The notes under the pieces are model-generated. The model saw only the letters and a program-made list of their open reading frames with translations. It was not told where the DNA came from and searched no databases. 28,335 bases of DNA from a virus (taxonomy: Duplodnaviria > Heunggongvirae > Uroviricota > Caudoviricetes). The position numbers and the translations under genes are program-made. Shown in pieces: positions 7,755 through 7,993 of this stretch (position 1 is the first letter of the stretch; each line of letters starts with the position of its first letter). Where the stretch lies: IMG/VR virus record IMGVR_UViG_2737471849_000009; one strand, given 5' to 3'.

Positions 7755-7993
7755 TTGATTCTGCAATTTCGGGACGTTACACTGTTCCGGCACCTTATAA
7801 AGCGGGTGCCGGGATTGGCGTCCTGAAATTCAATATAGAGCATAACCGCGCTCATGCGGTTTTTTCGTGTCATGAGCATTGCTACGTCCAAATTATGGTG
7901 GGGCGTGCAGGGGCATCGCAAGATGCGCCGGGTTCTATGTTGACCGGTTACGCCAACCCTGTACGTCTCACCACCTCTGTGATTGGCGTCCCA
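7755..7993 (+). promoter_or_regulatory. Promoter-hairpin-terminator cassette, copy A (paralogue of 13032..13262)
   Basis: TTGATT-N17-TACACT promoter-like hexamers (7755-7783); 8-bp stem hairpin (7787-7812); GGGATTGGCGTCC (7811-7823); intrinsic terminator ACCGC-N6-GCGGT plus T6 (7845-7865); second conserved block ending in TGATTGGCGTC (7981-7991); colinear with copy B. Confidence 0.5.

Follow-up and report, generated by a model that had tools for sequence, protein, structure and literature searches.

Two colinear units of the window, by which we mean the whole stretch of 28,335 nt that was analysed, are very probably antisense-RNA control cassettes of the IsrK/C4 type, which is represented by seqA/CI in P4 and by a1b1/c4 in P1. 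Copy 1 (7755-8035) and copy 2 (13032-13303) share the same order of elements: a promoter, a terminated RNA of ~77 nt containing b1 and a1, a C4 RNA of ~87 nt containing a' and b', and then b2 and a2. Both cassettes extend as far as the ATG that opens the following gene (8033 in copy 1, 13301 in copy 2). Control by IsrK/C4 is a kind of system that has already been described and that has an experimentally characterised orthologue. C4/CI-type small RNAs are processed by RNase P/PNPase from a read-through transcript and act on translation as well as on Rho-dependent termination. The IsrK/C4 pair has been equated with seqA/CI of P4, and such pairs are found in P1, P7, N15 and lambdoid Salmonella prophages (PMC3632133; PMC10111431). 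For the window, the family membership, the fold, the complementarity with its covariation, the position at the ribosome binding site, the conservation of an open frame and the orthology to Gifsy-1 and P4 are directly supported by the data presented here.

The Rfam scan at gathering thresholds gave five matches altogether. The isrK model RF01394, which comprises two hairpins and a terminator (gathering threshold 50 bits), matches 7790-7866 with 61.9 bits and 13068-13142 with 79.4 bits, and the C4 model RF01695 (45 bits) matches 7891-7978 with 80.1 bits and 13165-13250 with 74.0 bits, in both copies over model positions 1-87. The model RF03163 c4-a1b1 (46.7 bits) matches copy 2 at 13055-13107 with 52.2 bits; copy 1 is not matched by it at the gathering threshold, though the isrK match there spans the same elements. 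Because of these matches each unit can be read as a promoter followed by an IsrK-type RNA, a C4-type RNA and downstream targets. The 3' strand of C4 is tRNA-like (...CACCACC), as is visible in the sequence.

The original prediction had described 7755-7993 as a colinear paralogue of a cassette at 13032-13262, and the parts which it had listed, i.e., the promoter hexamers, the first hairpin, GGGATTGGCGTCC, the terminator with its T-tract and the downstream blocks, are all found at their predicted positions. A pairwise alignment, the kind of check that had been proposed, was made with MAFFT (7719-8040 versus 13028-13310) and yielded a mean column identity of 77% with long invariant runs. Within the window there are two exact occurrences of the 18-mer CCGGTTACGCCAACCCTG, at 7944 and 13216 (chance expectation 0.00), and four of GATTGGCGTC, two per cassette, at 7813, 7981, 13091 and 13253 (0.09 expected). 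The ends of the unit had been set too short: it is ~40 nt longer and includes a copy-specific a2 block. Of the interpretations offered at that time a conserved structured RNA agrees with the isrK and C4 matches above the Rfam gathering thresholds in both copies and with the covariation described below, and nothing in our analysis pointed to a protein-binding module.

Features of cassette 1:
TTG 7715, plus strand: alternative start of the long ORF, overlapping the lar stop codon (7716-7718)
7736-8398, plus strand: long ORF of 220 aa with Phage_ASH region and Rha domain; encloses the whole of cassette 1; counterpart of P4 eta
7755-7783, plus strand: predicted internal promoter 1 (-35 TTGATT 7755-7760, 17-nt spacer, -10 TACACT 7778-7783)
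7790-7866, plus strand: IsrK/seqA-like RNA 1 (isrK match, terminator scan)
7790-7809, plus strand: first hairpin of IsrK 1
7811-7823, plus strand: b1, GGGATTGGCGTCC, in the second IsrK hairpin
7829-7840, plus strand: a1, complement of its own a' loop
7844-7865, plus strand: predicted intrinsic terminator 1 (terminator scan)
7891-7978, plus strand: C4/CI-like antisense RNA 1 (C4 match; the MFE fold is the family structure)
7932-7943, plus strand: a' loop, GTTCTATGTTGA
7946-7959, plus strand: b', GGTTACGCCAACCC
7981-8035, plus strand: downstream target region 1 (b2, GTGGTGA, a2, ATG 8033)
7981-7991, plus strand: b2, GATTGGCGTCC
7995-8001, plus strand: conserved GTGGTGA
8012-8024, plus strand: a2, TTCAACATAGGGG, over the Shine-Dalgarno sequence of ATG 8033
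8033-8398, plus strand: nested ORF of 121 aa, Rha/Bro-family regulator (Pfam Phage_pRha; phrog_995, 3e-56)

Features of cassette 2:
13032-13061, plus strand: predicted promoter 2 (-35 TTGACC 13032-13037, 18-nt spacer, -10 TATATT 13056-13061)
13068-13142, plus strand: IsrK-like RNA 2 (isrK match; c4-a1b1 match 13055-13107)
13068-13087, plus strand: first hairpin of IsrK 2
13089-13101, plus strand: b1
13106-13114, plus strand: a1, complement of its own a' loop
13122-13142, plus strand: predicted terminator 2 (terminator scan)
13165-13250, plus strand: C4-like antisense RNA 2 (C4 match; MFE fold)
13169-13273, plus strand: small ORF of 34 aa; its start is an AUG in the 5' strand of the C4 stem, its stop the TGA within GTGGTGA
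13206-13215, plus strand: a' loop, TTCCTTTTTC
13218-13231, plus strand: b', identical to copy 1
13253-13303, plus strand: downstream target region 2 (b2, GTGGTGA, a2, ATG 13301)
13253-13262, plus strand: b2
13267-13273, plus strand: GTGGTGA
13285-13293, plus strand: a2, GAAAAAGGA, over the Shine-Dalgarno sequence of ATG 13301
13301-13789, plus strand: ORF6N antirepressor-like gene (Pfam ORF6N, 2e-21; phrog_2379 'anti-repressor'), predicted target of cassette 2

The putative promoter 1 agrees with the sigma-70 consensus in 8 of 12 positions and lies under the threshold of the promoter scan; its hexamers are invariant in 13 related cassettes and the sequence immediately upstream of them varies. 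Its presumed transcription start at ~7790 coincides with the first position of the isrK match. Promoter 2 begins 5 nt past the stop codon of the Q gene (12632-13027; Phage_antitermQ) and is with 10/12 the best sigma-70-like site in the region 6200-15600. Behind cassette 1 the first gene is the Rha-like gene 8033-8398, by its position the counterpart of P4 kil, and downstream of it the replication genes are found (8835-12026; O-like, ATPase, DnaB-like).

Recognition elements and a proposed mechanism

The MFE folds of both C4 RNAs consist of a long closing stem, a hairpin 1, a hairpin 2 with the exposed a' loop, and an internal loop with b'. The b' element is complementary to GATTGGCGTC, whose upstream occurrence is b1 in the second IsrK hairpin and whose downstream occurrence is b2. 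The a' loops of the two copies are unlike, and each of them has its own complement upstream (a1) and downstream (a2). Both a2 elements overlap a ribosome binding site, a2 of copy 1 holding AGGGG 9 nt 5' of ATG 8033 and a2 of copy 2 holding AAGGA 8 nt 5' of ATG 13301.

For the pairing energies segment-level duplexes were used in place of two-strand folding of the whole RNAs; when a whole C4 was folded against the IsrK or the downstream region, C4 merely unfolded and cognate and non-cognate energies were about the same. At the segment level, the a' loop of copy 1 forms a duplex of -15.3 kcal/mol with its cognate a2 and of only -4.2 kcal/mol with the non-cognate a2, and all of its duplexes fall at -15.3 (cognate) versus -0.7 to -4.2 kcal/mol (non-cognate). 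The discrimination of copy 2 is smaller, with -11.0 versus -7.4 kcal/mol for a2 and -8.6 to -11.0 (cognate) versus -3.8 to -7.4 kcal/mol (non-cognate) for all duplexes. The b':b1 duplex amounts to -18 to -20 kcal/mol and the b':b2 duplex to -10 to -12 kcal/mol.

By scanning viral contigs with a pattern for the C4 core, which fixes b' and the hairpin stem, we obtained at least 120 loci; these are pattern-selected and related to each other, so the following counts are not independent. Among the loci listed at least 45 distinct a' loops are present. The longest complement of a' is on average 9.4 nt in its own a2 and 8.4 nt in its own a1, versus 6.3 nt in cross pairings in either case. In the classes listed a2 lies mostly 46-56 nt past b' and from a few bases to ~15 nt 5' of a start codon, and the layout with a2 over the ribosome site is common to most of the 45 loop classes. 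The element a2 can itself contain an ATG. A gapless alignment of nine sequences has 97% of the a':a2 cells paired, with compensatory changes in 8 of 11 pairs (slid controls 36-52%), and 90.7% of the a':a1 cells paired, with compensatory changes in 9 of 12 pairs. None of 500 shuffles reached the observed pairing of a':a2 or a':a1, and slid controls overall gave 33-52%. The intramolecular fold of C4 shows compensatory changes as well (13 of 21 pairs, 36 sequences), which is the outcome of the RNA covariation analysis that had been suggested at the outset. Thus, as in C4/CI-type systems, the loops have complementary target pairs on both sides, upstream and downstream, and their specificity covaries. 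These comparative data lend direct support to an antisense recognition at the ribosome binding site in which the a' loop would be the specificity determinant.

We suggest the following mechanism. A constitutive promoter would give rise to a short IsrK-like RNA with b1 and a1, transcription mostly stopping at the intrinsic terminator. The read-through transcript would contain the C4-like RNA, whose a' and b' are complementary to b1/a1 upstream and b2/a2 downstream. Since a2 covers the Shine-Dalgarno sequence, pairing of C4, either in cis or as a processed RNA acting in trans, would block the translation of the next gene and, by polarity, also the transcription of further genes. The short IsrK RNA would compete for C4 and might in this way lift the block. 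In cassette 1, transcription starting at the internal promoter would yield IsrK and C4 only, so that the Rha-like gene and the replication module would be kept shut; transcripts from the early promoter would escape the block because ribosomes translate them straight through the cassette. Cassette 2 is predicted to gate the ORF6N antirepressor just past Q. With unlike a' loops and the same b' the two switches would be largely insulated from each other. Activity of the promoters and terminators, processing of C4, polarity by Rho and the override by translation are thereby taken over from homologous systems.

The open frame across cassette 1 and rival explanations

Both long ORFs that had been called across cassette 1 were originally regarded as suspect. 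This assessment holds for the minus-strand ORF 7697-8215, which is antisense to the RNA and has no family match. It does not hold for the plus-strand ORF, which includes the Rha gene 8033-8398 and a Phage_ASH match: as cassette 1 is of the P4 eta/kil type, inside a long open frame, the ORF 7736-8398 is probably not spurious. The Pfam family PF10554 Phage_ASH (gathering threshold 26 bits) matches copy 1 with 45.9 bits and, as a borderline case, frame A of copy 2 with 27.7 bits. In copy 1 the match falls on the 5' extension of the ORF across the cassette and corresponds to that part of P4 Eta which overlaps seqA-CI-seqC. In a near-identical prophage next to mlrA (E. coli E21845/O/A) the PGAP annotation has an 'ash family protein' at the site of the cassette. 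NCBIfam has no ash model and left copy 2 unmatched, and a literature search on the ash family protein returned nothing relevant. In copy 2 the frame-A ORF (13032-13418) is devoid of ATG codons, and its frame is not that of the ATG at 13301.

In a frame analysis anchored on b' the Ash frame is open over the full cassette in 27 of the 45 loop classes listed, and each of the other frames in 4 of 45. In 29 of the 42 classes listed the spacing from b1 to b' is 127, 133, 136, 139 or 178, values which each leave a remainder of 1 on division by 3. In-frame ATGs are found 5' of the promoter, and the junction sequences that contain them are of many different kinds. The E. coli-type cassettes with a 12-nt loop lie, among those listed, nearly all inside ORFs of 183-800 aa with many upstream and downstream partners, and in most of them the same Ash frame is open and runs into the flanking genes. 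The cassettes with loops of 8-11 nt are mostly intergenic; in such short-loop cassettes the frame is broken, and 14 of the 44 classes listed have stops in all frames. In P4 (our locus L123) the isrK and C4 models match seqA and CI with >60 bits and Phage_ASH matches the Eta protein (8168-8812, minus strand, 214 aa) with 82 bits over the seqA-CI region; therefore Phage_ASH is the translation of an RNA cassette. The last 65 codons of this 214-aa ORF, beginning with MATTL, form a nested ORF of the size of kil. PMC10111431, citing Forti 1999, describes that a promoter inside eta yields terminated transcripts and CI and that Kil is translated on read-through only; the full-length Eta is produced from an upstream promoter only, coupled to the preceding gene, and its translation prevents termination. 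A frame which is kept open without conservation of the amino acid sequence fits this account.

Could the conserved blocks nevertheless be protein-coding, forming the 'Ash' domain of a protein of the Bro network, with the matches to RNA families as a by-product? The translations of both copies exceed the Phage_ASH cut-off, the annotation pipeline calls the protein, there is a preference for an open Ash frame, and indel lengths tend to be divisible by three. Moreover, conservation of the blocks in a single frame across homologues had been named in advance as a finding that would speak against a non-coding unit, and for the copy-1-type cassettes this is partly the case. The most conserved block CCGGTTACGCCAACCC alone is no argument against coding either, because it is in the same Ash frame in both copies. 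We nonetheless consider a purely coding origin very improbable. The RNA reading survives because the excess of variation at the third codon position is absent, the frame of the C4 5' half differs and the variable blocks covary. Entropies by codon position are 0.30/0.37/0.37 in IsrK and 0.23/0.22/0.30 in C4, compared with 0.58/0.41/0.90 in the neighbouring Rha ORF; the segment of 35 nt before the a' loop is not read in the same frame in copy 1 as in copy 2, owing to 1-nt and 2-nt indels; and the variation is concentrated in three blocks which covary as RNA duplexes. The breaking of the frame in short-loop cassettes and the promoter and intrinsic terminator predicted inside the ORF also argue against it, as does the lack of protein similarity between P4 Eta and the Ash-Rha ORF of the window (E 0.09), although both are matched by the RNA models with >60 bits.

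Two further explanations concern the regulation rather than the nature of the unit. The cassettes might be modules for the utilisation of Q, with the Q-adjacent promoter as pR', IsrK 2 as a '6S-like' RNA and copy 1 as a second entry point for a Q-modified polymerase. On the plus strand the promoter 13032-13061 is indeed the only site of at least 9/12 in the interval from Q to the lysis genes; downstream of it, still ahead of these genes, are four terminator-like sites (13122, 13865, 14781, 14896), and the Gifsy-1 cassette likewise lies directly after Q. Yet the Gifsy-1 Q is unrelated whereas the promoter and the early transcribed region are nearly identical, P4, phage 2851 (in its nin region) and L039 (two within 3.2 kb) have cassettes with no Q close by, and copy 1, 4.9 kb upstream of Q, differs in its hexamers and hairpin. 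We therefore regard this explanation as unlikely; the antitermination-controlled entry point of the original prediction is superfluous for explaining the unit and has no support at all for copy 1, while Q could have an added function at copy 2 only. More weight is due to a purely cis-acting switch in the manner of Gifsy-1, which we hold to be possible but doubtful: the C4 segment would be a leader that folds inactive by a b1:b' helix and is opened by IsrK in trans. Its continuation, that a small ORF in the opened leader is then translated and coupled to the downstream gene, is just as doubtful. Copy 2 has an AUG in the C4 5' strand and the 34-aa ORF, and AUG 7895 of copy 1 is in the same frame as the Rha ORF. 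The covariation of a' with an a2 over the Shine-Dalgarno sequence in the 45 loop classes listed fits a direct occlusion by C4 instead, and the frame and stop of the small ORF are not conserved (45 aa in Gifsy-1, 34 aa in copy 2). P1 has a stable processed C4 RNA. A stable processed STnc1160/CI/C4 RNA has also been reported for Gifsy-1 (PMC4825925) and P4 (PMC10111431). In favour of the cis switch stand direct genetics and structure probing at the orthologous Gifsy-1 locus; its authors describe alternative structures in cis with IsrK as activator, and an excess of the C4-like STnc1160 was not found to relieve toxicity (PMC4825925). Because of this account and the STnc1160 result the balance between trans-antisense and cis-structure control is unsettled, and the two models are not mutually exclusive.

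Two cassettes in one element

Close relatives of the window also carry two cassettes, as do two other loci. Two intergenic-type cassettes are 3.2 kb apart in L039 and two embedded-type cassettes 866 nt apart in L091. In the two-cassette elements seen (window, L039, L091) b' is the same within the element and the a'/a1/a2 sets differ. Among the loci listed both architectures, embedded and intergenic, occur together in the window only; as the sample of two-cassette elements is small and pattern-selected and consists of partial contigs, the rarity of this mixed pairing can hardly be inferred from it. Phage 2851 has one cassette only, in its nin region, and its apparent 'two places' result from an antirepressor gene that is split by IS629.

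Tentatively, then, we propose that a single lambdoid prophage may use two largely insulated C4-type switches, of which the embedded one would gate replication and the intergenic one the antirepressor. On this reading the switches have an identical b' and differ solely in a hypervariable a' loop, which would act as an 'immunity-type' code. Through the common b' there could be limited cross-talk, or either IsrK RNA could serve as a sponge, and both decisions would thus be linked. In the embedded class the frame would be kept only to let ribosomes from the upstream operon override the RNA block.

Our results leave the known class of mechanism unchanged. They explain a 280-nt repeat that pipelines label as 'ash family protein' or leave unannotated as a second, RNA-based layer in the control of lysogeny; the E. 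coli prophage concerned is lambdoid and related to Stx-phage backbones. Matches to Pfam Phage_ASH are markers of embedded IsrK/C4 cassettes; the ORF-embedded, P4-like form is associated with an a' loop of 12 nt and the intergenic, P1/Gifsy-like form with shorter ones. The three-way a'/a1/a2 specificity code is a possible predictor of cross-regulation among co-resident phages and satellites. Further interest lies in the pairing of an embedded with an intergenic cassette, in the a' loop code and in 'Ash' ORFs as RNA cassettes which are kept translatable.

Comparison with known systems

Copy 1 matches the immunity region of P4 (PLE promoter, seqA, CI RNA, seqC and the nested genes eta/kil) in architecture and in context, because the cassette is embedded, a nested ORF follows and replication genes lie downstream. 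In both replicons the isrK and C4 families, corresponding to seqA and CI, stand in identical order, the a' loop has 12 nt, the cassette with its promoter is embedded in a Phage_ASH-matching ORF, and the nested short ORF begins right after the downstream target. Copy 2 lacks this arrangement of a promoter and cassette inside a long ORF with a nested short ORF. There are also differences between P4 and copy 1. P4 is a satellite and the window a lambdoid prophage, the sequence of b' is UAUUCUCACCCC in P4 and GGUUACGCCAACCC in the window, and the nested gene is the 65-aa Kil in P4 and Rha-like in the window. The leader transcript of P4 terminates mainly at a Rho-dependent site, whereas in the window a1 is followed by a clear intrinsic terminator.

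The comparison with the immI region of P1/P7 (c4, a1/b1, a2/b2, icd-ant) concerns the logic of the elements and the Rfam c4-a1b1 match of copy 2. In P1/P7 the antisense RNA and its targets come from one transcript, from which the RNA is cut out, and the same would apply to the window; in both cases the recognition elements a' and b' have target pairs on either side, and the downstream target covers the ribosome binding site of the first gene, ahead of an antirepressor. P1 and P7 are heteroimmune variants which differ in their recognition elements. Unlike P1/P7, the window has no icd-like leader gene, its antirepressor belongs to another family (ORF6N), and as a lambdoid prophage it has an additional CI/Cro-type repressor.

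In the pR'-6S RNA-tR' region of lambda and with StxS of Stx phages a short terminated RNA is transcribed from a constitutive promoter after Q, ahead of the late region. The likeness to this arrangement is positional and concerns copy 2 only; there is neither a sequence nor a family relationship, and no sign was seen here of Q acting on promoter 2.

Copy 2 is the orthologue of the antQ-isrK-orf45-anrP locus of Salmonella Gifsy-1. An alignment with Gifsy-1 (L124) revealed that the promoter, the IsrK hairpins, b1, b' and b2 are nearly identical, and the antirepressor has 59% amino acid identity to STM2616, which is taken here as AnrP. The position directly after Q with an AnrP-type antirepressor next is found for copy 2, not for copy 1. 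At Gifsy-1 the short IsrK acts in trans on the read-through transcript and activates its translation (Hershko-Shalev et al. 2016, PMC4825925); the processed STnc1160 RNA was seen and the analogy to P4 seqA/CI was noted by the authors (PMC4825925). The Gifsy-1 mutations G28/G31 and C159/C162 (PMC4825925) map onto b1 and b'. Both loci have an AUG in the 5' strand of C4, at 13169 in copy 2; for orf45 this start was reconstructed from the alignment, and the Gifsy-1 AUG positions are given as +107 and +120 (PMC4825925). By position the ORF 13169-13273 is the counterpart of orf45, with a different frame and stop codon: the 45-aa orf45 has a TGA overlapping the anrP ATG, whereas the 34-aa ORF of copy 2 reads through b' in another frame and stops 27 nt before ATG 13301, so that a coupling to the antirepressor by overlapping stop and start codons is not found. 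The a' loop is TTCCTTTTTC in copy 2 and of the CGGTGAT type in Gifsy-1, and a1 and a2 differ correspondingly. Since the Q proteins are unrelated (PF06530, 131 aa, in the window; Q82-like, 225 aa, in Gifsy-1) although the unit adjoins Q in both, the cassette and its antirepressor travel as a module.

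Elements with two cassettes and the motif following b2

Two further viral contigs carry two IsrK/C4 cassettes each, one contig (L039) at 3946–4147 and 7208–7406 and the other (L091) at a distance of 866 nt. Within each contig the two cassettes have the same internal loop sequence b' and the same type of promoter; the a' loops of the C4 RNA are unlike, and every a' is matched by its own upstream target a1 and downstream target a2.

Just 3' of the downstream target b2 the motif GTGGTGA is found at 7995–8001 in the first cassette of the window and at 13267–13273 in the second, and it is conserved between the two copies and across most relatives. 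The motif could pair with TCACCAC, the 3' strand of the C4 closing stem, and before processing the transcript might then fold in this way instead of into the C4 structure. In the second copy the stop codon of a 34-aa open reading frame lies in the motif.

Genes in the neighborhood of the cassettes

The following features are relevant here:
8835–9749, O-like replication initiator gene
13953–14756, AraC-family HTH gene (Pfam HTH_18/HTH_AraC; phrog_1450)

The window contains two ORF6N antirepressor-like paralogues, at 6649–7509 and 13301–13789, which share 71% identity over 86 nt in common (6904–6989 and 13544–13629). The former combines ORF6N with KilAC, follows the cro-like gene and has no RNA cassette ahead of it; the latter is gated by the second cassette. 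Between this antirepressor gene and the lysis genes lies the AraC-family gene, which is flanked by terminator-like sites (13865–13886, 14781–14800 and 14896–14911) and resembles a cargo regulator of the moron type, placed in the late-leader region.

Within the O-like initiator gene there are two short tandem arrays, one of 2.7 copies of a 23-nt unit (9218–9278) and one of 3.7 copies of the 12-nt unit TACAGAGAATAC (9293–9336). Both are probably origin iterons, like those of lambdoid O genes.

Comparison with related prophages and phage P4

The near-identical prophage of E. coli E21845/O/A (1–1763 in L001; 75–1361 in the window) is integrated beside mlrA, and a tyrosine integrase lies at its end. 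Past the cassette this strain has a separate, longer Rha-family gene, so the window differs there by replacement or deletion.

In the RefSeq record of P4 a 137-aa CDS (8168–8584) is still annotated over the CI RNA as "cI gene product / transcriptional repressor". A 214-aa open frame of the size of Eta, without annotation in this record, runs across seqA and CI on the minus strand (8168–8812), and the Pfam family Phage_ASH covers exactly its RNA-overlapping stretch.

The Q gene of the window (12632–13027; PF06530-type, 131 aa) is unrelated to the Q82-like Q gene of Gifsy-1 (34349–35026 in L124, 225 aa), whereas the isrK promoters, each immediately 3' of its Q gene, are nearly identical. Thus, the isrK–C4–antirepressor unit seems to travel as one module and to insert directly behind Q.
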